From UHGV virus genome UHGV-1460059: 41,456 bases of DNA. One strand, written 5' to 3'. Of this stretch, positions 1,201-41,237 are shown in pieces. Position 1 is the stretch's first letter. Each line of letters opens with the position of its first letter. The position numbers were made by a program, and so were the translations under genes. The stretch comes from a virus. Under the pieces are notes generated by a model. That model saw nothing but the letters and a program-made list of their open reading frames with translations. It did no database searches and was not told where the DNA came from.

Positions 1201-2249
1201 GAAATCGTCCCCAGTACCGCCAGTTCATTTTTTGCAATGGAGATATTGTCTGCCGGTGCAAGCAACTGATGGCTGTATTCCCCGTTCGCACCGGAAATCG
1301 CCTCACTGATACGCGACACCTTCAGTTCTCCCTGCGGATAACCATCACGCAGCAGGAACGAACGCAACTCGGCGGTGATGGCAGCCCGTATTTCCGGTGT
1401 GTCCGGCGTCACGCGGATATGAAAATCCACTTTATGCGCCACCGGCCTGAATACATACAAATCAGAGCCTGCCACCGGGGCCAGTGGCTCAATGTGTTGT
1501 CTTGCCGCCGTTTCCGTTGATTCTTCCGGAATGGGATTAATCAGGTCACTGCTGGCAATCATCACACCGACAGTTCCCGTTCCCATCCAGTGACGGTATG
1601 TCCATGCGCGGGTAATGCCGGGCACTTCTTTAGCCCAGACAACATAGTCCCCGTCAGCCCCGCCCTGAGGCGTCCAGTAATACCGCTCAATGACGCGGGC
1701 GCGCCACGTTTCCAGATCTTCAGTATCGAATCCGCCAGTCAGGGTATCTGCAACACCGGAAGACGGCAGACCATTCACCGGCGTGACCAGGATTAATGCC
1801 GTACCGTCGTCAGCGTTACCGACCGCGCCTGCACTTGAGCAGGCGATCGGCACGCGCAGGACACCACCGGAGCTGGTTGCATCAGCAGTTGCCGTGTACT
1901 GAACCAGGTCATCGCGCTGAATCACGCTCCCGGCGGTCACCTTCAGGCCATCGCTGACACCTTCCCAGCGCATATACCCGCTGGCAGCCGTGGCCCCCTT
2001 GCGCGGACACCGTTTCATCGCAGCATGTCGCGCCAGCCAGGACTCATCGCACAGGTCAGGCAGCATGTTCATTGCCAGATAATCGATGTAACCGTAAACC
2101 GTATGCAGCGCCGCCGCATACACCTTTGCCCGCACGTCTTCATCCATGCGCCGGAGCGTGTCGCTGACGTCCAGCCTGGCGAATAAATCGTTACGGAGCA
2201 TACTGATATTTTCTGCCAGCGTCGGGCGCTGAAATTCACTGTCCGCCAT
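1191..2249 (-). CDS. Baseplate J-like protein (Mu gp47-like)
   Basis: 352-aa ORF in conserved order after the gp46-like gene, overlapping its neighbours by a few nt. Size and position fit a baseplate wedge protein. Confidence 0.6.
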
Positions 2250-2664
2250 GCGTTATCGCACTCCACAGATCATCAAAAGAAATCATTACCGGTCCGTCAC
2301 GACGCCAGAGGGTGATACTGTTACCCAGCTCATTAATCCCGGTGCGGCGGATATCCAGATCAATACGGGACACCACGCCGTCATCAATCATCCATTGCAG
2401 GCATTCGCGGATATACCCCCTTACTGTCTGCACCAGCTGATTGGTCAGTTTGCTGCGCTGAAGCAGCCACAGTCGTGAGCCGTAACGGTCATTCTGTACC
2501 GCAGGCCAGGTATCCCCCCACCATCCCATCGGGACGTCGGCGTTGTCATCAGGCTCCGCCCGCCGCCAGGTAAACAGGGAAATCACCACGGCGCGGGTCA
2601 GCGGATCCAGCGGTGCGCTGGCGCAGGTGCGTTTACCGTTCACCGTCAGCCACAGTTCCATCAT
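2236..2664 (-). CDS. Baseplate protein, Mu gp46-like
   Basis: 142-aa ORF between the spike and J-like genes with overlapping stop/start junctions. Confidence 0.5.
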   Translation of the reverse strand: MMELWLTVNGKRTCASAPLDPLTRAVVISLFTWRRAEPDDNADVPMGWWGDTWPAVQNDRYGSRLWLLQRSKLTNQLVQTVRGYIRECLQWMIDDGVVSRIDLDIRRTGINELGNSITLWRRDGPVMISFDDLWSAITHGGQ

Positions 2665-3209
2665 GCCTCCATCGCTTTATCCGGTTTGTCGGTGTTACTG
2701 CCCTGACCGTTCTCTCTGTGACGATGCCCGTTATAGGCAAGCCGCATCGCTGACATGGTAGTGCCGCTGGAGTCGCACAGGTCTTTCACCTGTCCTGTCA
2801 CTTCCAGGTCCATTTCAAAACGTGCTTTAGGTGAATTGCGAAACGTGATCGTTTTACCTGCACCGTCCACCACGATCCCCTCCCGGGTCAGCGTCACAGA
2901 CTGCCCCTGATCGTCATAGACAGCCACCTCACCCGTCTGCAACCCTTTCAGGCGGTAGCGCCGGTCCGACACCGTAACAACCACCGCATGAGAACGGTCG
3001 CCATCCGGAAACAACACCACCGCTTCCGCGCCGCTGTTTGCCCTTGCGGTAAAACCGTAGGGTTCAAGATGTTCAACCCCGGCTTTGGGTTCACCGGCAA
3101 TCAGGGACACATCCACGGTCTGACATTTCGTGGCGGCACTGATGCTTTTCACCACTGCCCGCGCAATCAGGCCGAGAAGTTGTCGCTGCATGGCTTCAAT
3201 CGTCCTCAT
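2661..3209 (-). CDS. Baseplate assembly protein V-like / central spike (Mu gp45-like)
   Basis: 182-aa ORF in the gp45 position; length and position fit a gpV-type spike. Confidence 0.55.
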   Translation of the reverse strand: MRTIEAMQRQLLGLIARAVVKSISAATKCQTVDVSLIAGEPKAGVEHLEPYGFTARANSGAEAVVLFPDGDRSHAVVVTVSDRRYRLKGLQTGEVAVYDDQGQSVTLTREGIVVDGAGKTITFRNSPKARFEMDLEVTGQVKDLCDSSGTTMSAMRLAYNGHRHRENGQGSNTDKPDKAMEA

Positions 3210-4288
3210 CAGAACGGGTCCTCCTGTACTCTGGCTTTTTTCTTTTTCCGCGCGCCGGGGGCTTCGGGTTCAGGCAGATAAGCATCAGGCGGGCCGACAC
3301 GGATTTCCGTCAGGGTGCCGTTCTGGTCCTGAGTAAACGTGACTTCCGAGACAAGCAGTTCGGTATTGTCGAAACCACAGACTGGATCGAAGACAATCAC
3401 CCGCTGGTTGGGCTGCCACAGCGTACCGTTACCCTGTCGCCAGCCCTGCACCACATAGGTGGTTTCATCCGTCCGCGCCGCCCGTTGTCGGGCTTCAAAG
3501 TCAGCACGCGCAATACAGCCTGCCCCCGTGGCCTGCCCTGTCTGCCTGATATACATCGGACGGTAACGGGCAATAAATGCGTCCTCTGTGCGGGCCCGCA
3601 GCGCGGTGGTGGTGACCTCACCGAAATCATCGTCGTTTCCGGCACGCTGCCCCGCCACCTGGTAAACAGAAAACCGCTCCCGGATACTCTTCTCCGTATC
3701 ACAGGAAAGGATGTTTTCCCCAAGTACCAGCGCGGTATGTGCCCGCGTTGAGCCAATACCGCCAATCACCAGCCTGCCGTGCGGATCGTCGTAAGCCAGC
3801 GCCTGCTGCTGACCGAGTATTTTGTTGATAACCTCAATCACCGTTTCACCGTGATCAGGCTGAACATCAGGAATAACACCCGACGGCGCACCGCTGTTCA
3901 CCACCTCAATGCCGAAAGGCGCAGCAAGCGCCTGCGCAATCTGCACCAGCGAGCGTCCGTTAAACTGTGTCGGTTCGGCTGCACAGTCAATCAGGTCAGC
4001 CGTCAGACTACGTCCGGCAATACCGGTGCTGACCGAACGGGCATCGTAACGAACGGGAGTCGCCTCCACCCAGCCGGTGATCACCAGCTCATCACCAATC
4101 AGCACTTCCACTTTTGAACCGTTTTTAATGCGCGGCTGAAGCGTGGTGATACCCTCATCTCCCGGCCACTGGCGAGTGATCTCCACACTGAAATCCCGCG
4201 CCAGCCGTTCAATACCGGCACCGATGCGCACCGATGTCCAGCCATTCCACTCCCGGCCATTTACCCGTAGCGTGACATTGTCGTTCAT
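3209..4288 (-). CDS. Baseplate hub protein (Mu gp44/P-like)
   Basis: 359-aa ORF between the DNA-circulation-like gene and the spike gene. Confidence 0.5.
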   Translation of the reverse strand: MNDNVTLRVNGREWNGWTSVRIGAGIERLARDFSVEITRQWPGDEGITTLQPRIKNGSKVEVLIGDELVITGWVEATPVRYDARSVSTGIAGRSLTADLIDCAAEPTQFNGRSLVQIAQALAAPFGIEVVNSGAPSGVIPDVQPDHGETVIEVINKILGQQQALAYDDPHGRLVIGGIGSTRAHTALVLGENILSCDTEKSIRERFSVYQVAGQRAGNDDDFGEVTTTALRARTEDAFIARYRPMYIRQTGQATGAGCIARADFEARQRAARTDETTYVVQGWRQGNGTLWQPNQRVIVFDPVCGFDNTELLVSEVTFTQDQNGTLTEIRVGPPDAYLPEPEAPGARKKKKARVQEDPF

Positions 4289-5655
4289 TGCACTGGCACC
4301 TTCAGAGGGATCACCGGCACAAAGCCGGGATGCGTAATGGCATTACGCCGGATAATGTCCGCGTCACGCGCCGCGTTATCAAACCAGGTCGCCGCCAGCA
4401 CCAGCGCGGGTAAAACCTCATCCGGCGTGCGCTGAATGATCCGTGCAGACTGTTCAAGGCGCGTGTTGATATCCGCATTCAGATCTGCTTTCACCCGGCG
4501 CAGCGCCAGAAACAGCGCATCACTGGTTGTACGGGACAACTCCTTATCAATTGCCGTATTCAGTGTGTCGCGAATGTCGGTCAGTTCTTCCCACGTTGGC
4601 AGGTCAACCGTGTTTTTCACCGCCGGTGCATTGTTCAGTGCCGGATGCGTGACAGAAGGCCAGCCGGTGCTCTGCGCGGGTGTTGTTGACTGCCCTACTG
4701 TGGCATTCTGCATCACCGCGGAAGTTGTGGGCGCAGGCAATCGTGTGACGGCATACGCCGCTTCGCTGATTGCGGTCGTACGAAGGGTGCTGGCAACCAC
4801 GTTACGCTGCTGCGTCGCCGTGGCGGTAGTTTTACTGTCCGTTTTCCAGACGCCGCGCGGTTGCAGATCGCTGCCGAGGCTGACACCGGAAAGCGTTTTG
4901 ATCATGGTGACCAGGTCGCTGGCGTTACCATAAAGGCGTTTCCCGGTACGCCACATTTTCTGCACCTGCTCAACGAAATTTTTGCCTGACGATGGTGGCG
5001 GCAGAAGTACCGAGATATCCCCCTGCAACAGCCTGGCGGCATCCGATACGGCAGAATCCACCACTTTCATCGCATCAGAAACATACCCAAGCATTGTGCT
5101 GGCATTACCGACGACGTCGTTCTGCACAAAATCTGCCACGCCATCGATACTGAAACCACTGAAGCTGTCACTGATGCAGTCATCCAGTGCAGAACAGGAT
5201 GACATCAGCGTCTGCGCCGTCGCCGCACCTGAAGTGGGGTAAGAGAGTTCTCCCGCTTCGACAAACTTCAGGTCAAAGCGGACAATACGCCCTTCACTCT
5301 TCGATGTGCTGACCCGAACTTCCCCGTCAACACAGACTTTCAGCTCACCGTAAGTCGGATGGACAAGCGTGCCGGGACCGGGTTTATTCAGCGCGTCAAT
5401 CAGGCGATCGCGCTGGTCAAAGCAGTCATCTCCCACCACATAAGCTGTGATGGACGGGCGGAAAGTGATTTTCCCCAGGTCTTCGGTATAGGGTTTGTCG
5501 CGGTTCGGGTATTCGTGCGTTTCCACACGACGACCGGTTCCCGCACTTTCTTCTTCAACCTTAAACGGCACACCGCGAAATGACGCGTCCTGAAGTCTGT
5601 CTTTCCACGTCATATAAACTCCGTACATAAAAAATCCCACCGGAGTGGGACTCAT
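4285..5655 (-). CDS. Tail protein, Mu gp43 (DNA circulation protein N)-like
   Basis: 456-aa ORF immediately downstream of the tape measure gene, as in Mu-like myovirus tails. Confidence 0.5.
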   Translation of the reverse strand: MSPTPVGFFMYGVYMTWKDRLQDASFRGVPFKVEEESAGTGRRVETHEYPNRDKPYTEDLGKITFRPSITAYVVGDDCFDQRDRLIDALNKPGPGTLVHPTYGELKVCVDGEVRVSTSKSEGRIVRFDLKFVEAGELSYPTSGAATAQTLMSSCSALDDCISDSFSGFSIDGVADFVQNDVVGNASTMLGYVSDAMKVVDSAVSDAARLLQGDISVLLPPPSSGKNFVEQVQKMWRTGKRLYGNASDLVTMIKTLSGVSLGSDLQPRGVWKTDSKTTATATQQRNVVASTLRTTAISEAAYAVTRLPAPTTSAVMQNATVGQSTTPAQSTGWPSVTHPALNNAPAVKNTVDLPTWEELTDIRDTLNTAIDKELSRTTSDALFLALRRVKADLNADINTRLEQSARIIQRTPDEVLPALVLAATWFDNAARDADIIRRNAITHPGFVPVIPLKVPVQ

Positions 5656-19519: not shown

Positions 19520-20572
19520 TTATTTCCCCACCAGTTCACTTACCTCTTTCACCGTCTGATTAAACCGCTCTGACTCAAGTTCAACACCTAACGCCCGACG
19601 CCCCAGCGCCATTGCTGCTTTTATTGTGGAACCGGATCCCATAAAGAAATCAGCAACCAGATCACCAGGTCGACTACTGGCATTGATTATTTGCCGGAGC
19701 ATATCCGCCGGTTTCTCGCACGGATGTTTACCCGGGTAGAACTGAACGGGCTTATGCGTCCAGACATCGGTATAAGGCACGGAGACTGATACGGAGAAAT
19801 AGCGCCGGAGAGATTTAAACTCATCCAGCAATTCAGAATATTTGCGATTCAGTGAATCATAAGATGCCACCAGCTGGTGGTGTGGTTGTTCCAGTTGTTG
19901 TTCCTGAAACTTCTCTGCCGCTATACGGGAAAACAGTGCCTGTAACTTCCGATAGTCAGCCTCATTCGGCAACTGCCACTGACTGGCACCAAACCAGTGG
20001 GAAACCATATTTTTCTTACCTGTGGCTTCGGCAATTTGTTTTGCCGTTATACCCAGTTCGGCACGAGCATCCCTGAAATACGATATCAGCGGTGCCATTA
20101 TGTGCTGTTTGAGTTCCCTTTCTTTTGCCGCATAGCCGTCACTTTTGCCGCGATATGGCCCCTGGTAATGTTCAGCAAACAGAACGCGCTCTGTGGCAGG
20201 AAAATATGCGCGCAGACTTTCTTTATTACACCCATTCCAACGTCCGGACGGCTTCGCCCAGATGATATGGTTAAGCACGTTGAAACGTTCACGCATCATG
20301 ATCTCAATATCAGATGCCAGGCGATGCCCACAGAACAGGTAAAGGCTTCCGGCAGGTTTCAACACCCGCCAGAACTGGGCCAGACAGTGGTCCAGCCACT
20401 TAAGGTAATCTTCGTCCCCTTTCCACTGATTGTCCCAACCGTTAGGTTTCACCTTGAAGTAAGGCGGATCGGTAACAATCAGGTCAATGGAATCATCAGG
20501 CAGGGACTGAATAAAATGCAGGCAATCAGCGTTGATTAAATCAACACTGTTTATTTTTACAGTATTTTTCAT
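19520..20572 (-). CDS. DNA methyltransferase (amino-MTase, beta class: DPPY then FxGxG)
   Basis: Motif IV LIVTDPPYF near the N-terminus and motif I DFFMGSGST near the C-terminus. Located between the late promoter region and the lysis genes. Confidence 0.8.
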   Translation of the reverse strand: MKNTVKINSVDLINADCLHFIQSLPDDSIDLIVTDPPYFKVKPNGWDNQWKGDEDYLKWLDHCLAQFWRVLKPAGSLYLFCGHRLASDIEIMMRERFNVLNHIIWAKPSGRWNGCNKESLRAYFPATERVLFAEHYQGPYRGKSDGYAAKERELKQHIMAPLISYFRDARAELGITAKQIAEATGKKNMVSHWFGASQWQLPNEADYRKLQALFSRIAAEKFQEQQLEQPHHQLVASYDSLNRKYSELLDEFKSLRRYFSVSVSVPYTDVWTHKPVQFYPGKHPCEKPADMLRQIINASSRPGDLVADFFMGSGSTIKAAMALGRRALGVELESERFNQTVKEVSELVGK

Positions 20573-21178: not shown

Positions 21179-21937
21179 TTATTTTGTCACTTTTCTCAAT
21201 TGTGTCTCTGCATATGCTTCTTCCTGCCAGCACTTTGTAACCAGTTTATCAATGACATCTGCATATCCTTTGTACCACTGATAATCCGTCAGATCCGGTA
21301 CCAGCTTCTGGACATGATGCCGCGCCAGTGTGGTTGGTAAACGGCTAAACCGGTTTCCATTGCAACGCCCACAAATCTTATAAACAGGCGTGCCATGAAG
21401 CCGGGTCCTTTTTTCATCCAGGACAATACCTTTACCCTTACACCCTCTGCACGCTGTGCTGACTTCTCCCTTACCATGACAATGCTGACATAGTTCCTTC
21501 ACCCACTCCTCCTTGATAACAGATTCACCGCTTCTGGAGTGTTTCACCACTTCGCGCAATACATTATGAAATCCAGTACCTGCACAATGCTCACAGCGAG
21601 CCTTACTTGCCGCAGACCTGGAATAATCAGCAAAGGCAAAATTCACAAGGTAAGGGATGATCTGTAACCGGGTTTCTTCACTCAATTTATTCAATGTCGG
21701 GTTATCCAGTGCCATCGCGTAATTGAGCAGACCTTCAATCGCAAACTGAGGATCCTGAACACCAACTTTTGCCAGGAATAAGGCAAAACCCAGTGGTGCT
21801 TTCGACTGCACCATCCCCTGCGCAGCCATCACATCCGTAATCGTTAAACCACCAGAGCCTGTCGCCGGTGCGTCATCGCTCAATTTTGGAGATTTTGGGG
21901 AGTAATATTTTGGTAAGGCTTCAAGGTTCATGCTCAT
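21179..21937 (-). CDS. Late-gene antiterminator Q-like protein
   Basis: 252-aa protein with clustered Cys/His zinc motifs (CEHCAGTGF…CQHCHGKGE…CRGCKGKG…CGRCNGN), positioned immediately upstream of a promoter/terminator pair and the lysis genes. Confidence 0.6.
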   Translation of the reverse strand: MSMNLEALPKYYSPKSPKLSDDAPATGSGGLTITDVMAAQGMVQSKAPLGFALFLAKVGVQDPQFAIEGLLNYAMALDNPTLNKLSEETRLQIIPYLVNFAFADYSRSAASKARCEHCAGTGFHNVLREVVKHSRSGESVIKEEWVKELCQHCHGKGEVSTACRGCKGKGIVLDEKRTRLHGTPVYKICGRCNGNRFSRLPTTLARHHVQKLVPDLTDYQWYKGYADVIDKLVTKCWQEEAYAETQLRKVTK

Positions 21938-31830: not shown

Positions 31831-31938
31831 AAATCAGCACGTACGAATTCAAACTCTGCCATAAAAGAACATATAAGTAATTTATTAACATATAGATATA
31901 GGTTATATTACAAATTGAAAAATTATTGGAGAGCAACA

Positions 31939-32805
31939 ATGAATCAAAATCCATTCTCATTCTATGACTTTCTTGGATATTTAATACCAGGTGGTTTTTT
32001 TATCCTATTAATGTATTTCTGTGGTTTGACATTCGATCTAGATATTGTTATTGACTTAAGTGAATTGCTCAGAGGTCAAAGTCAAATCTTTGGCATTTTG
32101 AACTACGCTTCAATAGTTATTATATCTTATATAGCTGGACATTTTATTTCTATCACGTCAGCATTTTTTATCGAAAAATACATGAATAAAGAATTAGGAT
32201 ATCCTTCCAAATATCTATTTAAAAAATTGATAGATACCTCAGAAAGCATTTGTAGCCCATCATGCGATGAGAGAAGCGCTGATAAAAAAACAAAAATAAA
32301 GAATCGCATAATCAAATGCGTATTATGCCCAATAATACTATGGGATTTTATAACACAAAAACTATGTTATTCTCAATCTCTACCATTTCATTTAGCTAAT
32401 ACAACATGGTTAATGATCAAAGAAGGTTATGAGAAAAAGTTCATAACAAATCGCCAATTATTACAAGATAAAAACGGACTTGATGATGATCTCTTCAGAT
32501 TGGCATATCATTATGTTTATGAGTTTTCAAAACAACATCAAACAAAAATTCAAAACTATGTTGCATTATATGGTTTTTGCAGAAACATATGTTTAATCTT
32601 TATAATTTCATTTTGGGTATCAGTTCCAACCTTTATTTATCGATTATGTACTCATAGTGATTATCTTTATAGTTTACTTTCAATAATGCTTAGCTTTTTC
32701 TTCGTCTATGTTTTCTATGTTGGTTTTGTTAAATTTTATAGAAGATATACTTTAGAAGTATTAATGGCATTTGCTGTACTTCAAAGTAACGACACTATTC
32801 GTTAA
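31939..32805 (+). CDS. Polytopic membrane protein, very AT-rich (accessory gene upstream of xis/int)
   Basis: ATG at 31939 with GGAGAG upstream. Several hydrophobic segments (LGYLIPGGFFILLMYFCGL; IFGILNYASIVIISYIAGHFISI; ICLIFIISFWVSVPTFIY; LLSIMLSFFFVYVFYVGFV). GC content is far below the flanking phage genes. Confidence 0.45.
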   Translation: MNQNPFSFYDFLGYLIPGGFFILLMYFCGLTFDLDIVIDLSELLRGQSQIFGILNYASIVIISYIAGHFISITSAFFIEKYMNKELGYPSKYLFKKLIDTSESICSPSCDERSADKKTKIKNRIIKCVLCPIILWDFITQKLCYSQSLPFHLANTTWLMIKEGYEKKFITNRQLLQDKNGLDDDLFRLAYHYVYEFSKQHQTKIQNYVALYGFCRNICLIFIISFWVSVPTFIYRLCTHSDYLYSLLSIMLSFFFVYVFYVGFVKFYRRYTLEVLMAFAVLQSNDTIR

Positions 32806-32846
32806 TAATGTTGCTCCCGTGTGCAGACGGGATAATGGAGAAACGT

Positions 32847-33053
32847 ATGCTGAACCTCGATTGTGTTCCTATCTCAACTTATTGCAAAGAAACTGGCGAA
32901 ACTCCTGAAGCAATAAACAAACGTGTACAGCGCGGTGTTTGGCGTGAAGGTGTTCAGGTTTTAAAGGTTGAAGGCGTTAAGGAGAGGTGGATTGATCTTA
33001 GTGAGGTTGCAAAATGGGCCAGACAAAACTGCTCAAACTACCGCGCGGCGTAA
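32847..33053 (+). CDS. Excisionase-like small DNA-binding protein
   Basis: 68-aa basic protein whose 3' end overlaps the int start by 40 nt. ATG at 32847 has GGAG upstream; the alternative start is 32835. Confidence 0.45.
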   Translation: MLNLDCVPISTYCKETGETPEAINKRVQRGVWREGVQVLKVEGVKERWIDLSEVAKWARQNCSNYRAA

Positions 33054-34186
33054 CAATCAGGAAACACCGCCAGGGAGAAACGATCAATATAACTTTCACC
33101 TACAAAGGAGTTAGATGTCGTGAGCCGCTTTCCAATCTGGAAGTAACACCAAAGAACATTAAATACGCCGAGCGTACACTCGGCGAAATCCATAATAAGA
33201 TCGAAAGGGGAACATTCATTTATGCAGAATATTTTCCCCGTTCTGCTCGTTTGAAAATTTTTGGTAATGCTGCTGCAGGCAAAACGGTAAAGATGTACCT
33301 GGACGAATATCTTGAAATCTGCGAAACAAGAAAACTTTCACCCTCTACGATTGGTGGCTATAAAAAATGCCGTAGTGCGTTAGCCTCACTTCACATTTGC
33401 CCTGCAAGTGAATTAACACCAGCAACCCTGAAAGCGTGGATTCAAAATCAGAAAACGACCTTAAAAACAATTCGCAACCAGTTATCTTTCCTGCGGTCAG
33501 CACTTGATGAAGCCGTGACCGATGGGGTACTTCAAATTAACCCCGTATCGTTAGTAACAGCTTCGCGCTACCAAAGTGATAAGTCAGAAGCAGAAAGCAG
33601 CTACGTAGTTGATCCGCTATCACCAGCAGAAGTTGATGCATTACTAGCAGCAGCCGGAAACAAACAATGGGAAAATCTGTTCCGGTTCGCTATACATACA
33701 GGCCTGCGTAGTTCTGAATTATGTGCCCTTCGATGGCGTGATATCGACTTTGTTGGAAAAACTGCCCATGTCCAGAGCGCAAGTGTTGTCGGTGTTATCA
33801 AAGGGACAAAGACAAAAGCAGGTACTCGGAAAGTTGAACTGACAGAAGAGGCAATGTTGGCGCTGATAAATCAGAAGCCATTTACATTCATGAAGGATAC
33901 TACTGTCTTTGAAGATCCAAAGACCAATAAGCCTTGGGCAAGTGCTGATGCAATCAGGAAAAAAGCATGGGTGCCAACATTGCGAAAAGCAGGTATTCGT
34001 TACAGAAATCCATATCAAACTAGGCATACATTCGCCACCCGCCATATCAGCCGGGGAGCAAACCTGTTTTGGCTTGCAGCTCAAATGGGGCATAAAGGGC
34101 CGGAAATGTTATTTCGTCATTATGGTTCATATTTAAAGGAATATGACGGTAATACGACCAGCAATATCACAAAAAAAGCCACTTAA
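33014..34186 (+). CDS. Tyrosine integrase (lambda-type, with arm-binding N-terminal domain)
   Basis: 390 aa; C-terminal catalytic signature including …HTFATRHISRGANLFWLAAQMGHKGPEMLFRHYGSYL… (R, HxxR, Y). Confidence 0.9.
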   Translation: MGQTKLLKLPRGVTIRKHRQGETINITFTYKGVRCREPLSNLEVTPKNIKYAERTLGEIHNKIERGTFIYAEYFPRSARLKIFGNAAAGKTVKMYLDEYLEICETRKLSPSTIGGYKKCRSALASLHICPASELTPATLKAWIQNQKTTLKTIRNQLSFLRSALDEAVTDGVLQINPVSLVTASRYQSDKSEAESSYVVDPLSPAEVDALLAAAGNKQWENLFRFAIHTGLRSSELCALRWRDIDFVGKTAHVQSASVVGVIKGTKTKAGTRKVELTEEAMLALINQKPFTFMKDTTVFEDPKTNKPWASADAIRKKAWVPTLRKAGIRYRNPYQTRHTFATRHISRGANLFWLAAQMGHKGPEMLFRHYGSYLKEYDGNTTSNITKKAT

Positions 34187-34195
34187 GTGGCTTTA
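34175..34195. terminator. Bidirectional intrinsic terminator straddling the int stop codon
   Basis: aaagccact-TAA-agtggcttt (perfect 9-bp stem). On the minus strand it is followed by a U7 run, ending the int-distal operon; on the plus strand it ends int. Confidence 0.6.
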
Positions 34196-34199
34196 TCAA

Positions 34200-34583
34200 T
34201 TAGGAGGCTCTCGATTTAAGCATTTCCGTACACTTAGCAAAGAGCCTCTCAGTTGTTAGAATCGCAACTTCAGACTGTTTAGAAGTGACCGATTGATCAA
34301 GTCGATAGTCTGCAACAATCCTCTGAGCTTTAAGTTGACTCAGGATAAAACTAATCCCTTTTAGATATCTAGCTTCATATACTTCACTTCCTCTTGAAGC
34401 ATCGCCCTGCAAATAATTGATTAGCCCCTGATGACTGTCTTTCGGCCCGTTTACCATACAAGGCAAGACATGATGGTAAGCGCCATAGTAGGATCTTGCT
34501 ATAGCATTTCGATAGCCGATTTCGTCATTACGTTGATGACAGTCTTTTGCAAAACCGAGAAAATCTTGACTATTAACCGGCAT
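34200..34583 (-). CDS. Hypothetical protein with R-x6-H motif (HEPN-like candidate), distal gene of the int-att operon
   Basis: ATG at 34583 with GGAGGG 7 nt upstream; 127 aa; motif RSYYGAYHH; 11-nt overlap with the upstream gene. Confidence 0.4.
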   Translation of the reverse strand: MPVNSQDFLGFAKDCHQRNDEIGYRNAIARSYYGAYHHVLPCMVNGPKDSHQGLINYLQGDASRGSEVYEARYLKGISFILSQLKAQRIVADYRLDQSVTSKQSEVAILTTERLFAKCTEMLKSRAS

Positions 34584-35388
34584 GTGCAACCCTCCGGGTA
34601 ATCAGACCTAATTCGGAGATAGCATTCTGCTCAATATGTGTGTCTTTACATTCAAACCAAACAGCAAAATCTTTACCGACTAAACAATCGTGCTCAGCCA
34701 TTGAAAAAGCAAGCTCAATATTCATATCAGCGATTTGTTCAGCATCAGAAGACTTTGTCATGAATACAATCGCATTCACTTTCTCTTCCGAAATATTATA
34801 AAAACGCATTCCCGAAAGATGAACCTTCTGAGAATCCATGACATTGGCTACATTATTGAAAATAAGTTCATATTCTAAACCAGAAAGATCGGCACGTTGC
34901 TTAAAGGATTCGACCTGGGAAACAACTTCATCAAAATTGTTGTCCATTTTTTCAGGCTCCTTATCTCCGAACAATTTAGAGTATGACTGGAAATACTTCT
35001 CCGCCAACGCCATCTTCCCCATAAAGAGGGAGTTTTCATAAGCTTGAAGATAAATAAACGGGGATATGAAGCTTTCAGCAAGCTTAATGCTTGTTTCAAA
35101 GCTTTTCTTCAACGTACCGTAATCTGACAAGAAAACAAGAAAATTCTTTGCAACAACCTCATTATGGCATACCTGCAAGGAACGCTCAAAGAAGCCTATC
35201 GCCTCATTCACTTGGCCATGTGCACCATAGACCAACGCTAAAAGATAGTCCTCAGAGACAGGATCTCTAAGTGCTTCAATCTCACGTAACATCCTTCTAA
35301 AGCTAAAGTCATCAATCCTCACTCCATCTTTGAGGTATTTAGTTAGCCGCGCGCTAATAACTGATGCTTTTTTTGCTGGCTGCAACAT
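34573..35388 (-). CDS. Hypothetical protein (271 aa), AT-rich, first gene of the int-att operon
   Basis: Long ORF in AT-rich DNA; helical-repeat-like N-terminal half; no recognised catalytic motif. Confidence 0.45.
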   Translation of the reverse strand: MLQPAKKASVISARLTKYLKDGVRIDDFSFRRMLREIEALRDPVSEDYLLALVYGAHGQVNEAIGFFERSLQVCHNEVVAKNFLVFLSDYGTLKKSFETSIKLAESFISPFIYLQAYENSLFMGKMALAEKYFQSYSKLFGDKEPEKMDNNFDEVVSQVESFKQRADLSGLEYELIFNNVANVMDSQKVHLSGMRFYNISEEKVNAIVFMTKSSDAEQIADMNIELAFSMAEHDCLVGKDFAVWFECKDTHIEQNAISELGLITRRVAHAG

Positions 35389-35815
35389 TAAAAACCTTAT
35401 CTTACAAATAGTTGGTAATGATGTTGAATTATTTTTTGTTCTTTATGGCTAATAAGATTACATGAAGGGACAACTTCTGACCACCTTAGAAAACACTCAC
35501 TTTAGTAACAAGAGTCAATAATATTGTTGACAAATCACAAAAAAACAAACTTATCCAAAACAATCTGGTTTATCACAAAGCCTCTGTGCATAAATCTGTG
35601 CATAACATCATTTTTACACACATTTTTTTATAAAAATATTTTTTAGCAAAAAATGCTATCTATCTCCGAAACTGCAACCACAAACCATTAATTCCAAATG
35701 AAACTATTTTAAAATAAATAGTAAGACAGTAACAGGACAGAAAAAGTTCCGCAAAAGAGCCGCTTGTAAAATCAACAATATTTGGCTATTTAAATTCAAT
35801 GAATTACATAACTAT

Positions 35816-35847
35816 GGACACGGGTTCAACTCCCGCCAGCTCCACCA
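35816..35847 (+). other. ssrA (tmRNA) 3'-end-like fragment: attachment-site core / junction between two integrative elements
   Basis: GGACACGGGTTCAACTCCCGCCAGCTCCACCA matches the recalled E. coli tmRNA 3' terminus with one mismatch. Upstream sequence is AT-rich and unlike ssrA, so only the terminal ~32 nt are present. Confidence 0.6.
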
Positions 35848-36012
35848 CTTTTTAGTTGTTTGAAGTTCAATGAAGTCTACTAAGCCCACACAGCACAAGC
35901 TCTGCGGGCTTTTTTACGTCTATTGTCGTCCAGTGAGAATTGCTGAGAACTACGAGTTATGGCACCCTGAATGGGACCCACTAAGAAGGGTCCAAAAACC
36001 GAGGGTCCCAAA

Positions 36013-37242
36013 ATGGCAAAAATCGCTAAGAAGCTCACTGACACTGAAATCAAAAGCACCAAGCCAGCCGATAAAGAAATCAACTTGTTTGACGGTGATG
36101 GTCTGATTCTACGAATCGCTCCTTTGGCGAAAGGAGGCAAGAAAAATTGGTATTTCAGGTATGCAGTACCAGTGAGCAAGAAAAGAACCAAAATGAGCCT
36201 TGGGACATATCCTCACCTTACCCTTGCAAGAGCCAGAGCCTTACGTGATGAATATCTCTCCTTTCTGGCAAATGGTGTTGATCCCCAAATCCATAACAAC
36301 GATAAGGCGAAGGCATTAAAGAGTGCTACTGAGCACACTCTCCAAGCCGTAGCGCGGAAATGGTTAGATGAGAAGGTAAAGACATCAGGTATCTCACAAG
36401 ACCATGCAGCAGACATCTGGCGCAGCTTAGAGAGAAATGTCTTTCCCGGTCTGGGTAATGTCCCTATCAATGAGATCCGACCTAAGCTCTTAAAACAACA
36501 CCTTGATCCTATTGAGCAACGAGGCGTATTGGAAACTCTACGCCGTATCATTTCACGTCTGAATGAAATCTTCCGGTGGGCAGCTACTGAAGAACTTATT
36601 GAGTTCAACCCGGCTGACAACCTTGGTCAAAGATTCAGTAAACCAAAAAAGCAAAATATGCCTGCCCTTCCCCCAAGCGAATTGCCAAGGTTTATGGAAT
36701 CTTTGACGAATGCGTCAATCCGGTTGGAAACACGTATGCTAATTGAATGGCAATTGTTGACATGGGTTCGTCCGGGTGAAGCCGTTCGCGCAAGGTGGTC
36801 TGATATTGATACAACCAACAGCATTTGGAACATTCCTGCTGATTTCATGAAAATGAAAAAGCTTCACAAAGTTCCTTTGAGTAAAGAAGCTTTGCGCATC
36901 CTTGAATTAATGAAATCAATAAGTGGGCATAGAGAATGGGTTTTCCCCAGCATAAAAGCGCCTCTTAATCATATGCATGAACAAACAGCCAACGCAGCTA
37001 TCATCCGAATGGGGTTCGGAGGCGAGCTTGTAGCTCACGGTATGCGTTCTATTGCACGAACAGCGGCAGAGGAGTCTGGTAAATTCAGAGCTGAAGTTCT
37101 TGAGGCAGCGCTTGCCCACTCGAAAAAAGATGAAATTATCGCAGCATACAATCGTGCAGAATATCTGATAGAGCGACAGAGTTTGATGCAATGGTGGAGT
37201 GATTACGTTCAAGCTCAAAGATCAAATGCTCTGGTAGCCTAA
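36013..37242 (+). CDS. P4-type tyrosine integrase (IntA-like)
   Basis: ATG at 36013 with GAGGG upstream. N-terminus MAKIAKKLTDTEIKSTKPADKEINLFDGDGLILRI… is typical of P4-family integrases; lies ~165 bp downstream of the ssrA-like fragment. Confidence 0.85.
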   Translation: MAKIAKKLTDTEIKSTKPADKEINLFDGDGLILRIAPLAKGGKKNWYFRYAVPVSKKRTKMSLGTYPHLTLARARALRDEYLSFLANGVDPQIHNNDKAKALKSATEHTLQAVARKWLDEKVKTSGISQDHAADIWRSLERNVFPGLGNVPINEIRPKLLKQHLDPIEQRGVLETLRRIISRLNEIFRWAATEELIEFNPADNLGQRFSKPKKQNMPALPPSELPRFMESLTNASIRLETRMLIEWQLLTWVRPGEAVRARWSDIDTTNSIWNIPADFMKMKKLHKVPLSKEALRILELMKSISGHREWVFPSIKAPLNHMHEQTANAAIIRMGFGGELVAHGMRSIARTAAEESGKFRAEVLEAALAHSKKDEIIAAYNRAEYLIERQSLMQWWSDYVQAQRSNALVA

Positions 37243-37768: not shown

Positions 37769-39517
37769 TTATGGTAGCATCATTGATACATAATCCACAC
37801 CAATCCTTGAGCTATACTGAGACGCTATAGCCTGATATCTTTCTGCATAACCAGTTCTCAGTTGAGATTTAAGTTTGAGTCGGACAGGAACATTTTGCAC
37901 GTTGCCATCCATATTACTTAAAAACACGGCAGAAATAATATTTTTTTCTTCGCCATCAACTGTTGTTCCATGATTCAACACCACCATATAATCAACAACA
38001 GGAAGCGTTTTATCCCCTTCGAAAATAGAGAGATATTTTCTTTGATTTTTATGCATTACATATATATATTTCGAATGTTCAGCAAATGGCAATGCTTTAC
38101 TCTGACTGGCGTTAAAAAGCTCCAGAACTTTAATGAGCCTGTGCGGACTTAATCTTACATGGTGAGGGTCGTTACCCTGAGTAGGAACCAAATCACATGC
38201 CGCAGATACACATAAATACCATTTGTTCGACTCTGTATCAAAGAAAATAGTGCCAGTAGAAATATGACCATCTTCAAAATTCTTTGAAGACAAATTCATA
38301 TTTAAAGCATGATACATTTCGTGATAAGTATCATTATTTGATGGCAGATCCATTTTTGAAGAGCAATATTGGAGCAATGCAGCAACTCCGCTGTTAGCGT
38401 ATTCATTTGAATAGCTATCAAAAACACTTTTGATAAATTCATCCAGCGTATTATTATTTTTAAGTCTTTGATAAAGCTCTTCTGATAAATTACCAAATAC
38501 AAAGTCAATATTTCTACATCTAATATCAGGCGAGTCTGATTTTAATATCTCATTTAACCACGCAGCTTGACCGTAATGATCGTTAGCAAAATGATTTACA
38601 AAAGATAAAGCCTCAGCTTCGATTGCATTCTGAATTTCAGATTTTATTAACTGATAATAAGATGGTTTCCATTCAATGAGAGAATCATTGAGAGTTTGCC
38701 AAATCCTATCTCCATCGTTTTCATGATCATCTTGAACCTTATGAAATAGGGAGACAAAGATATTACCACATTGAATCCATTTTACTCCGCTTTCATCACC
38801 CCGAATGACATTGCCAGATGTGTTGCTAGAAATAATTGCATTTCTAGACACAGCATATTCTGCAATCATTTTTGCAATGAAGTTTTTATCCTTTTGATCC
38901 TCCAACACAGCATCATCATGTATTAATCTTTTAATTCTTCTACAAGGCTTACTGTCTTTAATATAGGCTATTGTTTCATCTCTTGTGAGAGCTTTATTAC
39001 CATTATCATTTAAGTTCGGTAATACAACGTCTTCCCAATAACTTTGGACATCTTCATTATCGTAGTCAATGATCAAGCTGTTGATATCCAGAGCACCTTT
39101 GAGAGTCGATGATATCTGCATCCAAACCGTTTCTAAATTCTCTCTAGTATATATTACAATCATATTTAAATGATCGGAGTCTTTCAAATCTTGTAATAGT
39201 TTAAGTGTTTTATCAGGTGCATTATTATCAAGATGATAATCTACAATAATAAGATCTGATTTTCTAATCCGATCCACATCGAAATTAACAGAACCATTGT
39301 CAACATCACAAATCATATTTTTAGATTGAAAAAAGCTCTCAAGAGTAGCGGCTCGTTTAGATGAGTCAATTTTGTTGTAGTCTAAATCAACTTCGTTATT
39401 CAACGCCCTGATTGATTCAGAATACGTCAGAAAATCGTCATCAATCATGACAACGGAACGAATTGCATTTTCGCAGAAAGTTTTCTGGACAAGAGAATTA
39501 TAATTTGCCACTGTCAT
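37769..39517 (-). CDS. Receiver (REC)-domain protein with ~450-aa uncharacterised C-terminal domain
   Basis: N-terminal REC-like signature: VVMIDDDF (acidic pocket), LIIVDYHL (phospho-acceptor Asp), NMIVIYT (Thr). Start preferred at ATG 39517, 1 nt after the upstream stop; ATG 39535 is the alternative. Very AT-rich. Confidence 0.5.
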   Translation of the reverse strand: MTVANYNSLVQKTFCENAIRSVVMIDDDFLTYSESIRALNNEVDLDYNKIDSSKRAATLESFFQSKNMICDVDNGSVNFDVDRIRKSDLIIVDYHLDNNAPDKTLKLLQDLKDSDHLNMIVIYTRENLETVWMQISSTLKGALDINSLIIDYDNEDVQSYWEDVVLPNLNDNGNKALTRDETIAYIKDSKPCRRIKRLIHDDAVLEDQKDKNFIAKMIAEYAVSRNAIISSNTSGNVIRGDESGVKWIQCGNIFVSLFHKVQDDHENDGDRIWQTLNDSLIEWKPSYYQLIKSEIQNAIEAEALSFVNHFANDHYGQAAWLNEILKSDSPDIRCRNIDFVFGNLSEELYQRLKNNNTLDEFIKSVFDSYSNEYANSGVAALLQYCSSKMDLPSNNDTYHEMYHALNMNLSSKNFEDGHISTGTIFFDTESNKWYLCVSAACDLVPTQGNDPHHVRLSPHRLIKVLELFNASQSKALPFAEHSKYIYVMHKNQRKYLSIFEGDKTLPVVDYMVVLNHGTTVDGEEKNIISAVFLSNMDGNVQNVPVRLKLKSQLRTGYAERYQAIASQYSSRIGVDYVSMMLP

Positions 39518-39518
39518 A

Positions 39519-41237
39519 TTAGAACTCCACTTCATTGAACTGGATCACAAAATTAGCGCCATCTTTTATTAAATAGTTATCGCCTTCATCAGGTTCTGAA
39601 TACCATATTTTATGATGTGCAACAGCAAGGTTTTCTCGACATAGATACAGACCTACCCCATGTCCATTTGCTCTTTTGCTATAAAATAGTTCAAATAGTC
39701 GCGGGATATCATCGGTATCAATTGCCGGACCAGAATTTGCTATGATAACCAAAGAATTCACAAAACCAATCTTTATGAGCCTATTATTTGACAGACTGAC
39801 CCAATACATTGCATTGTTGATAATATTAGTAAAAACAGGATAGATCCTTGATGGTATATCTGTTATTGCGATTTGCTTAAACTCTTCACTAAATTCAATA
39901 GTTATTCGTTGCCGTTCGAAACGCTCCCCAAAGAACTTCAGGACATAATCCATGATATTTTTTCCAGTTATTCTCTGCCTGGATTGATAACCTGATATTT
40001 TCAAAGGTGATAAGAAACGTATTTGTTGAGTAAGCGATCTGTGAGCATTTAACGCCAATGAAAAACCAGGGTGTTCTTTTACAGAAGTAGGAAGAGAGTT
40101 TAGTCCTCTGGTTACCATAGAATCCATTTCTTCAAGTTCATGAGATATTATCTCAACACTAATACCTAACTGTGCAAGCGCGTTTAAACTTTTAGCTTTT
40201 TCTTCAAAATATGAGCGTTCTTCTTCAGATAATGAGAATGCTGAATCTAAGTTTATACCTTCAAATAATCTATCGAGACCTTTTATTATTGATTGATATT
40301 TGAAAGTTAGGGTATCAACTGACTCAACATATAAACTATCGAGCAAATTAAACACATTTTCAATTTGTGAATCATTATCTATTGAATCAACAACTGATAT
40401 AGTTTTAGCATAATAATCACTTCGATCAACCTTTATTTCATCGGCCCATTTTTTTAAAAGAGAATGTATCTTCTCCTCTATCGTGTTATTAAACTTAGTT
40501 AGTTTAGAATTAATAATACCTTGATTTTTTTCAAGGTGATTTTTCGCTGACAATGAAGGCTCAAGTTTATTTAATTCAGAATCAAGTTTATTAATTGCTA
40601 ACTTCATTTGTAGAATATACGCAGAGAACTCATTAAATTTATCTCTGTAGTCTCTATATTTCTCTTCATACATTCCAAGTTTTGGAGGTTTGATAGGCGT
40701 TTTAATTTCACTGCGCAACGCATCTAAGTTTGTAAGATCACTGTCTATAATTTTAAGATAGTTTAAATCTAACGAACCATCAGTTTTATCAAGCTTAGTT
40801 TTCAGCCTTTTAACAGCCTCCAAGGAAGCATCAAGAACTGGTGTCTGATTCTTCAAAGCTTCTGAAAAACTTTTTTGTGTTGATTTTCGAGCTTGTTGTT
40901 GAGCAGATTTTCTTAACTCTTTTTCACGCTTAACTTGTTCTAAAAGCTCTTTACGGTCATCAGAACGTGAACCAAAAAATCTATCAGCAAGTTCAGTTAA
41001 CAAATTAGATATAATAGTTTTCAGTTCTCTTGCAGCCTGGTTTCTTATGAATCCCTCTCTCCCCGACTTATCTTTCAGCTCTTTATTACTGGATTGAGTA
41101 ATTCCAATATAACCAAAAATCCTTCTATTAGACCAATAATATCGCCCTGCATTCCATGAACGTCTTTCTTCTATCTGGAAGAAATCATTATCTACTCGAC
41201 CATAAGGTAATACTCTCAAGCTATCCCTAAAAATCAT
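39519..41237 (-). CDS. Soluble histidine-kinase-like protein (coiled-coil N-terminal region + HisKA/HATPase-like C-terminus), apparently 5'-truncated
   Basis: H-box-like ISHELEEM, N-box NIINNAMYW, G1 NSGPAID, G2 GHGVGLYLC; no TM segments. The reading frame stays open upstream of the first ATG to 41363 inside the IS end, with no start codon. Confidence 0.5.
   Translation of the reverse strand: MIFRDSLRVLPYGRVDNDFFQIEERRSWNAGRYYWSNRRIFGYIGITQSSNKELKDKSGREGFIRNQAARELKTIISNLLTELADRFFGSRSDDRKELLEQVKREKELRKSAQQQARKSTQKSFSEALKNQTPVLDASLEAVKRLKTKLDKTDGSLDLNYLKIIDSDLTNLDALRSEIKTPIKPPKLGMYEEKYRDYRDKFNEFSAYILQMKLAINKLDSELNKLEPSLSAKNHLEKNQGIINSKLTKFNNTIEEKIHSLLKKWADEIKVDRSDYYAKTISVVDSIDNDSQIENVFNLLDSLYVESVDTLTFKYQSIIKGLDRLFEGINLDSAFSLSEEERSYFEEKAKSLNALAQLGISVEIISHELEEMDSMVTRGLNSLPTSVKEHPGFSLALNAHRSLTQQIRFLSPLKISGYQSRQRITGKNIMDYVLKFFGERFERQRITIEFSEEFKQIAITDIPSRIYPVFTNIINNAMYWVSLSNNRLIKIGFVNSLVIIANSGPAIDTDDIPRLFELFYSKRANGHGVGLYLCRENLAVAHHKIWYSEPDEGDNYLIKDGANFVIQFNEVEF

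Follow-up and report, generated by a model that had tools for sequence, protein, structure and literature searches.

In the viral genome UHGV-1460059 (41,456 nucleotides (nt), referred to below as the window), two overlapping minus-strand genes at positions 34200-35388 lie between a prophage integrase gene and the remnant of an attachment site, and, as far as their sequences and those of their homologues indicate, they form a mobile, separately terminated and translationally coupled cassette. The smaller product (127 amino acids, aa) is predicted to adopt a HEPN fold and displays a dense, enzyme-like set of invariant polar residues, and the larger (271 aa) appears to be a TPR protein of non-enzymatic character. 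We consider that there is about an even chance that the cassette is a prophage-borne abortive-infection or toxin-antitoxin-like module, in which a non-canonical HEPN effector would be held by a diverging TPR partner. This reading is favoured because of the HEPN subgroup to which the fold belongs, the linkage of the two genes, the asymmetry of their divergence, their mobility, and the precedents provided by HepS, Tha and operons that combine HEPN and TPR genes. An earlier description of the window, made from its letters alone (hereafter the preliminary description), had recognised two overlapping genes of these lengths and of low guanine plus cytosine (GC) content at this location, and the gene boundaries that it gave are upheld here. 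The features of the cassette itself are as follows.

34573-35388, minus strand: large gene, 271 aa from an ATG start, taken from the open reading frame (ORF) list; predicted TPR-like array and C-terminal domain.
34200-34583, minus strand: small gene, 127 aa from the ATG at 34583; predicted HEPN-fold product.
34573-34595, minus strand: gene junction, with a stop/start overlap at 34573-34583 and a GGAGGG Shine-Dalgarno sequence at 34590-34595.
34168-34194, minus strand: predicted intrinsic terminator of the cassette, a palindrome followed by a T-run.
35389-35799, minus strand: AT-rich non-coding leader 5' of the large gene, recognised by its GC content and situated in the swapped cargo segment.

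Both ORFs are evidently real genes, far beyond what chance would produce, given the many homologues of each and their conserved synteny: a gene of the large family is found immediately upstream, on the same strand, in all 76 viral loci from IMG/VR and in 18 of 19 genome loci (94 of 95 in total), the genome loci comprising 12 from a scan of one genome per species plus contigs encoding two homologues. The exception (L019), from a Thiotrichaceae metagenome-assembled genome, has an overlapping upstream ORF of 266 aa with a weak profile match to the large family (hhalign probability 33%). Of 75 distinct homologous loci, 66 have the two genes overlapping, by 1-20 nt; in the window, the stop of the large gene and the start of the small gene share 11 nt (ATGCCGGTTAA, 34573-34583), and this overlap, together with the Shine-Dalgarno sequence at 34590-34595, indicates translational coupling. 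The small gene could be extended to a TTG codon (34200..34589, 129 aa), yet the ATG at 34583 is most likely its start, as the GGAGGG sequence lies 6 nt upstream and homologues open with MPV... or MSV.... A decayed copy of the pair was observed in Proteus hauseri (L020, 5118-6108), where the large gene has broken up into two ORFs and, of the small protein, residues 7-42 alone can be detected.

Despite this tight linkage, the two proteins diverge unequally. The small protein was closer to the window copy than was the large protein in 51 of 51 matched comparisons (e.g. identities of 74% vs 58%, 61% vs 34% and 37% vs 19%), and median pairwise identity is 39% for the small family against 24% for the large. 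We considered the possibility that the TPR half of the large protein evolves faster than the remainder, and rejected it, given that the TPR part and the C-terminal part diverge equally, with a median identity of 24% each. The comparisons thus support a conserved putative effector accompanied by a fast-evolving partner, in which the sensing surface is not localised by rates.

Profile searches and structure prediction both assign the small protein to the HEPN superfamily. Taken alone, its sequence matched nothing in NCBIfam and no Pfam model at E <= 1; in PADLOC-DB v2.0.0 it gave a marginal match to HEPN_IX (E 0.0013, 16.8 bits, 40 residues), and in PHROGs it is a member of phrog_5176, a function-less entry. 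At least 50 cluster representatives occur in Enterobacterales, and a few homologues have been named 'UPF0332 family' or 'HEPN domain-containing' by JGI/NCBI, one of them with a precomputed PF05168 assignment, while an exact-sequence cluster look-up returned neither the small nor the large protein. With a profile made from an alignment of 30 sequences (A1), a search of PDB recovered 9xbd (E 2e-5) and 9xbc (E 1e-4), both entered as 'HEPN domain-containing protein', and 2hsb (AF0298, UPF0332; E 0.022), and 24 of the 30 homologues individually matched PF05168 (best E 2e-5). We found no paper on 9xbd or 9xbc in the literature. The top match of the same PDB search, polyubiquitin (E 4e-11), was rejected as an artefact: it consists of a 25-residue likeness (L.D.R..sDY.l vs LEDGRTLSDYNI), and was discarded because weak similarity had added up over nine repeats, each with an i-Evalue >100.

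An AlphaFold2 model of the small protein is confident (predicted local distance difference test, pLDDT, 92.9; predicted template modelling score 0.86) and places helices at residues 5-17, 21-42, 51-59 (short), 71-93 and 101-126, giving the up-and-down bundle of four helices, helices 2 and 3 being separated by an insert, that characterises HEPN domains. Its structural matches further include TT1696, ST0689, the HEPN domains of sacsin and Roquin, LsoA, HepT, Csx1 and Csm6, and Foldseek gave the same outcome with weaker statistics. On this evidence the small protein has a predicted HEPN fold of AF0298/UPF0332-like (PF05168-type) character. The preliminary description had called the protein HEPN-like and had named the absence of a HEPN fold from structure prediction as grounds for abandoning the idea; the profile matches and the model comparison confirm the fold. 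Its further statement that neither protein matches a nameable family does not stand, with the small protein now placed among UPF0332/AF0298-like proteins and the large protein among TPR proteins.

The large protein proved harder to place. Pfam yielded sub-threshold TPR matches alone, around residues 48-76; PADLOC-DB v2.0.0 gave no match to it, PHROGs lists it as phrog_17809 (again without a function), and few relatives came up in word-indexed searches. When 1.84 billion representatives were searched exhaustively with a profile, 87 clusters were recovered at E <= 1e-10, the majority of 250-265 aa and matching end to end, and the remainder long TPR proteins aligned through their repeats. The AlphaFold2 model (pLDDT 87.3) shows eight helices in TPR-like pairs (residues 4-139), then a low-confidence linker, and then a compact C-terminal domain with helices at 152-166 and 170-187, strands at 191-199 and 204-211, a helix at 216-231 and a strand at 242-247, that is, an alpha-alpha-beta-beta-alpha-beta fold over approximately residues 150-250, for which no family match was found. 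With tandem helix-turn-helix repeats arranged as a solenoid, the protein is, on the evidence of the model, a TPR protein. Among 63 distinct homologues there is not one invariant residue, and eight alone reach at least 90% conservation, in agreement with the preliminary description, which had seen no recognisable catalytic motif; the pattern speaks against an enzyme (for instance an MntA-like antitoxin that AMPylates) and in favour of a binding protein. No DNA-binding domain that might serve autoregulation was found in it.

The cassette also stands apart in composition and transcription signals. GC content is 40.3% over the gene pair and 37.0% over the swapped segment (34150-35815), as against 53.5% for positions 1-27500 and 44% for the integrase gene. 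A perfect 10+10 nt palindrome (AAAGCCACTT/AAGTGGCTTT, 34175-34194) spans the integrase stop codon (34184-34186) and is followed on the minus strand by 7 T, as expected of an intrinsic terminator. The preliminary description had taken it for a perfect bidirectional terminator across that stop codon: the palindrome and the minus-strand terminator are indeed present, whereas the plus-strand tail (TTTATCAA) is T-poor, and termination in both directions, or of the integrase transcript, is therefore not demonstrated. The leader at 35389-35799 presumably contains the promoter of the cassette. An imperfect 18-base-pair palindrome within it (GTCAATAATATTGTTGAC, 35514-35531, 126 nt 5' of the large gene) was entertained as an autoregulatory operator and rejected: it occurs in 5 of 68 upstream regions, all of them near-identical E. 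coli copies, and hence does not represent a conserved operator.

Many complete E. coli chromosomes (e.g. strain SFE8) contain positions 33900-35900 at 100% identity, and the annotated neighbourhood there is a lambdoid prophage with a P27-type terminase, followed rightward by a second integrase island and then by glaH-lhgO-gabDTP. The order of the locus is excisionase, integrase, the gene pair on the opposite strand, a 3' remnant of ssrA, and the second island, which opens with a P4-type integrase. The surrounding features are listed below.

32808-33053: excisionase gene, from a match to phrog_2917.
33014-34186, plus strand: prophage tyrosine integrase (Pfam Arm-DNA-bind_2 9e-24, Phage_integrase 8e-17), convergent with the cassette.
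34150-35815, no strand: variable cargo segment, from a BLAST break in related E. coli prophages.
35800-35847, plus strand: 3'-terminal fragment of ssrA, the transfer-messenger RNA (tmRNA) gene (Rfam tmRNA 21.1 bits, E 5.5e-6, under the gathering threshold).
35971-37242: P4-type integrase of the next island, from Pfam.

From 35816 onward the window matches the annotated ssrA of hundreds of E. coli genomes in BLAST, and ARAGORN detected no complete tmRNA or transfer RNA gene within the window; the fragment at 35800-35847 is evidently what remains of an attachment site; it delimits the prophage and belongs to the following island as well. A partial match to the Rfam small RNA IsrM at 35838-35915 on the plus strand (52.8 bits vs a gathering threshold of 376), in which the alignment is confined to the two ends of the model, covers the final nucleotides of the ssrA fragment and also a terminator-like hairpin at 35897-35911, and most likely represents the ssrA terminator region.

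Similarity to related E. coli prophages ends approximately 37 nt before the integrase stop and resumes at the ssrA fragment, such that the related genomes match 33014-34149 and 35816-35900. Prophages with a 96% identical integrase hold an unrelated 259-aa plus-strand ORF in the slot instead of the cassette; this ORF, seen in E. coli VTB96816v (L021, 4215-4994, plus strand) and ST131-751 (L022, 6215-6994, plus strand), has no Pfam or PADLOC match. Homologues of the small protein are rare, with detectable copies in 6 phage genomes among 50,697 deposited and in a single plasmid among 72,556. The window allele occurs in 44 of 5,426 complete E. coli genomes, including CFT073 (C_RS15240/C_RS15245), and a second allele (WP_001145023 and WP_001136067; small protein 62% and large protein 35% identical) in 53 more, which brings the two alleles to 97 of the 5,426. 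The second allele is situated at the integrase-attachment end of another prophage near yejO; in E. coli ST167, near yejO/narP, its locus (L099, 3341-4297 and 4781-5921, both minus strand) lies beside a DUF2971 protein and a recombinase fragment.

Elsewhere, the pair is convergent with an integrase at a distance of 12-250 nt in approximately 35 loci, and these integrases are of at least two kinds, the other type adjoining eco/mqo in loci of the pair in Enterobacter and Pseudocitrobacter. Further positions are between the antiterminator gene Q and holin/lysozyme genes (Serratia and further prophages), between Mor and lysozyme in Mu-like Aeromonas prophages, beside a P22-type antirepressor, and in chromosomal islets, namely the murJ-flgN interval of Mixta and the space between frr and a transporter gene in Gilliamella. 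In a Serratia fonticola prophage, an ApeA-like HEPN protein (ApeA_NTD1 plus HEPN_Apea, weak precomputed matches) is encoded at L006, 1-1589 (plus strand), upstream of Q and the pair, and we take this to mean that defence-type genes cluster there. Two distant versions (small-protein identity 31-35%) have an intact tmRNA gene approximately 340 nt upstream (L084, tmRNA 2827-3190 and pair 3538-4825; L093, tmRNA 1263-1626 and pair 1963-3149), although this recurrence in other lineages of an association with ssrA-linked element ends probably merely reflects a favoured integration site.

These comparisons indicate that the pair is exchangeable accessory cargo (a 'moron') and not part of the phage core, given that the slot varies among close relatives and that the pair has its own terminator, an atypical GC content and other sites in unrelated phages. 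The preliminary description had anticipated accessory cargo in the interval between integrase and attachment site, and it would have withdrawn its proposal had the genes been conserved phage core genes; the different gene held by relatives with a 96% identical integrase, and the few positive phages, bear out its expectation. The survey it proposed, for homologous pairs at such junctions in related prophages, did find recurrence in other prophages.

What such a protein pair might do depends largely on the active site of the HEPN member. Anantharaman et al. 2013 (PMC3710099) place the Rx4-6H motif of HEPN domains where helix 3 finishes, at its C terminus, and the loop leading to helix 4 begins. 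At this position the small protein has R88-I-V-A-D92-Y93 (helix 71-93), which aligns residue by residue with RNRSDY of 9xbd; histidine is absent there, and the family is therefore one without the canonical histidine. Across 56 distinct homologues from genomes and viral contigs (28-74% identity), E21, R25, N26, A27, R30, Y32, Y33, H37, H51, L81, R88 and Y93 are invariant, and D20, Y36, Y57, E67 and D92 are conserved in at least 90% (D92 in 98%). H51 opens the short helix 51-59, which belongs to the helix 2/3 insert. In AF0298-like HEPN-T proteins and in AbiV, the arginine is likewise retained and the histidine is gone ('conserved D in place of H' in the published table), and a second conserved histidine from the helix 2/3 insert has been suggested to form an alternative active site (PMC3710099). 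The small family shows this AF0298/UPF0332 HEPN-T pattern, with R88 and H51 invariant and D92 nearly so. HEPN proteins serve as toxins in many toxin-antitoxin and abortive-infection systems (PMC3710099), and a variant motif need not abolish activity: AbiV, with such a motif, has been reported to be a ribonuclease (RNase) that cleaves ribosomal RNA (bioRxiv 10.1101/2024.05.05.592566), and HEPN proteins without the motif scored as toxic in a genome-scale screen cited in PMC3710099.

Under the reading that we favour, the cassette would be a single mobile unit of temperate-phage cargo expressed in the lysogen. The HEPN protein, probably dimeric as are other HEPN proteins, would bind or cleave RNA at a site in which R88 occupies the canonical position, D92/Y93 stand where the histidine would be, and the helix 2/3 insert supplies H51; E21/R25/N26 and R30/H37 may contribute to it as well. 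The TPR protein, made together with it, would bind it stoichiometrically in an inactive complex. Release of the HEPN protein would then follow when a phage-derived protein docks on the solenoid, or when infection leads to loss of the TPR partner, and translation would be arrested, such that the infecting phage is not propagated. The sensor/regulator and HEPN-effector arrangement of the preliminary description fits the synteny, the overlap and the contrast between a conserved small and a fast-changing large protein, although the R-x6-H motif on which it was based does not carry it. A more ambitious version can be put forward only tentatively, and we regard it as doubtful: the pair would constitute a hitherto unrecognised and widespread anti-phage system of gammaproteobacterial prophages, in which the TPR protein, a fast-diversifying receptor, would directly detect a phage protein and thereupon set free a HEPN nuclease acting through an R88/H51 site and not through the canonical Rx4-6H histidine.

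Several observations weigh against the favoured reading. The canonical HEPN histidine is missing, and the Class II HEPN toxins (PF05168), which have a conserved tyrosine and no active RX4H, may differ in catalytic function, which is undefined (Yao et al. 2020, PMC7641770). Since both domains of the large protein diverge at equal rates, the TPR part is not singled out as a diversifying sensor. A sigma-70 promoter scan of the leader found no consensus-like minus-strand site, only weak candidates by eye. Apart from the marginal HEPN_IX hit, neither member of the pair matched a validated defence family in PADLOC-DB v2.0.0, and the accessions of the pair are absent from the rows examined of the DefensePredictor tables, several of which are partial. 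Finally, some HEPN domains are non-catalytic binders, among them those of sacsin and MtlR and the C-terminal domains of nucleotidyltransferases (PMC3710099).

This last precedent underlies the best-surviving alternative, which we nonetheless consider unlikely: that the small protein is a non-catalytic HEPN adaptor that binds nucleotides or RNA, and that the pair regulates prophage or host genes or counters host defence. The missing Rx4-6H histidine would fit such a role, and we found no report of RNase activity for PF05168/AF0298-type proteins in PMC3710099 or PMC7641770. However, 12 invariant residues, mostly charged or aromatic, at identities of 28-74% are more than a binding scaffold usually keeps, and they include both the arginine and the alternative histidine proposed for a substitute site (PMC3710099). 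Moreover, a cassette with its own terminator, convergent with the integrase gene and next to the attachment site, has the layout of lysogen cargo, unlike that of early lytic anti-defence genes.

Somewhat less likely again is a plain addiction module, in which post-segregational killing would stabilise the prophage or island without any sensing of phage, and the TPR protein would act as a labile antitoxin. The overlapping bicistron with the putative antitoxin gene first has the expected layout, the cassette is located where integrated elements end, some of them islets that lack obvious phage genes, and HEPN/MNT pairs, which combine HEPN with a minimal nucleotidyltransferase (MNT), are classic toxin-antitoxin modules (PMC7641770). 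Against this, a 271-aa, two-domain TPR protein is atypical as a simple antitoxin, there is neither a DNA-binding domain nor, in the sole upstream palindrome, a conserved operator, and the placement of the pair among accessory genes, together with the very fast evolution of the partner, is more akin to defence cargo, although the two readings are compatible with one another.

The explanation closest to the preliminary description, that R30 and H37 are themselves the Rx4-6H motif of a canonical HEPN RNase, is very improbable: both residues are invariant and their spacing falls within the range of 4-6, but they sit in helix 2, away from the motif position at the end of helix 3 (R88-x3-D92-Y93), H37 aligns with a tyrosine of 9xbd, and a single match is at chance level. 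The string noted there, R30-SYYGAY-H37, is truly present and lies in helix 2 (21-42), outside the HEPN motif position. With 9 arginines and 4 histidines in 127 residues, about 0.85 R-x4-6-H matches would be expected by chance and one is seen, so that the motif match alone is no evidence; nor, given the tyrosine opposite it in 9xbd, is H37 a superfamily-wide residue. The HEPN call was right and the reason stated for it unsound. R30 and H37 are better viewed as family-specific invariants that may line the site, distinct from the HEPN signature.

Some observations concern neighbouring genes. A 296-aa multi-pass membrane protein of approximately 30% GC is encoded at 31915-32805 (plus strand), immediately 5' of the excisionase gene; its PHROGs match is phrog_12528 (E 9e-174, a function-less entry), and it weakly matches the PADLOC model for Csx27, a type VI-B CRISPR accessory protein (E 1.4e-5), and because related prophages have yfdS and a small gene at this position, it looks like a second exchangeable cargo slot. 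On the island that follows the ssrA remnant, an overlapping minus-strand pair (37769-39535 and 39519-41237) encodes a 588-aa Response_reg_2 protein (PF19192) and a 572-aa HEF_HK/HATPase_c protein (PF19191/PF02518), with no PADLOC match; the DefensePredictor tables enter the island ATPase WP_000577254 as a 'Predicted novel defense gene'. The minus-strand stretches 19520-20572 and 21179-21937 hold, in the vicinity of the prophage antiterminator gene Q, a type II-like N6/N4 DNA methyltransferase (PADLOC MTase_II, E 1.6e-152), for which no partner endonuclease was identified.

The biochemical role of AF0298/UPF0332 HEPN proteins that lack the canonical histidine is undefined (PMC3710099; PMC7641770), and the cassette offers a phage-associated member of that branch, borne by E. 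coli and joined to a partner of a new type. Prophages commonly harbour candidate defence pairs; for this one the evidence that it forms a unit is good, and because the well-studied strain CFT073 possesses the cassette, questions of toxicity, defence and active site are directly testable. Should a TPR receptor indeed release a HEPN nuclease with an alternative site, the pair would open this large branch of HEPN proteins (AF0298/UPF0332; Class II, PF05168) to functional and mechanistic study for the first time, in a tractable E. coli host. If the pair is defensive, it would add a TPR-controlled HEPN module to prophage-encoded immunity, and the slot between the integrase gene and the ssrA attachment site would be an exchangeable cargo position in this prophage lineage, at which relatives hold a different gene. 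If it has no such function, it is one more hypothetical prophage gene pair.

With reference to published systems, no Pfam or NCBIfam model matched the two proteins of the cassette at the thresholds as set, and our literature search, with newer DefenseFinder/PADLOC releases and subscription journals outside its scope, found no mention of WP_001145022, WP_045171897, WP_000941198, WP_001145023 or WP_001136067; text searches on UPF0332/COG1895 and on HEPN-TPR wording likewise gave nothing. The closest relatives of the small protein are the AF0298/UPF0332 HEPN-T clade (Anantharaman et al. 2013) and the Class II HEPN/MNT toxin (Yao et al. 2020). In Class II systems (PF05168/PF01909) the adjacent gene encodes a minimal nucleotidyltransferase with GSX10DXD, whereas here that place is taken by a TPR protein of 255-271 aa. 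AF0298-type proteins are archaeal or encoded on the chromosomes of thermophiles, whereas the present family is gammaproteobacterial and phage-borne and has the additional family-specific invariants E21, R25, N26 and H37. The type VII HepT/MntA system differs in that both the RX4HXY motif and the MNT partner are absent here, and neutralisation by AMPylation is therefore not expected. AbiV shares with the small protein the lost canonical histidine and the alternative histidine (PMC3710099), but the family-model match and the RNA antitoxin (abiV2) that define it were not found.

In its genomic setting the cassette resembles HepS of Gifsy-1, Tha of Staphylococcus aureus prophages, and AbiV, all of which are single-protein abortive-infection systems carried by temperate phages, with a HEPN effector; HepS (PMC13043305) and Tha (PMC11087260) are prophage-encoded and are triggered by phage structural (tail) proteins. 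DS-28, a two-gene system from DefensePredictor validated in E. coli, is similar in layout and size, its HEPN nuclease having 163 aa and its partner 252 aa, but was rejected as the same system on account of its reversed gene order (the partner gene being upstream in our bicistron), its canonical RNxxxH and its lack of profile similarity (negative scores and E 0.2-0.3 for its proteins against the profiles of the pair, in a two-sequence search). Several HEPN families occur in operons with repeat proteins, notably LA2681 (with TPR proteins, and also fused to TPR) and AbiU2 (with Sel1 repeats) (PMC3710099, Table 1); these are alike in architecture, a HEPN domain with a TPR or Sel1 solenoid, and are set apart here by their description, in which Rx4-6H is retained. 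Consequently, while the pairing of HEPN with TPR has itself been known since 2013, the cassette appears to be a module in which the HEPN effector has a non-canonical site and its TPR partner is new.

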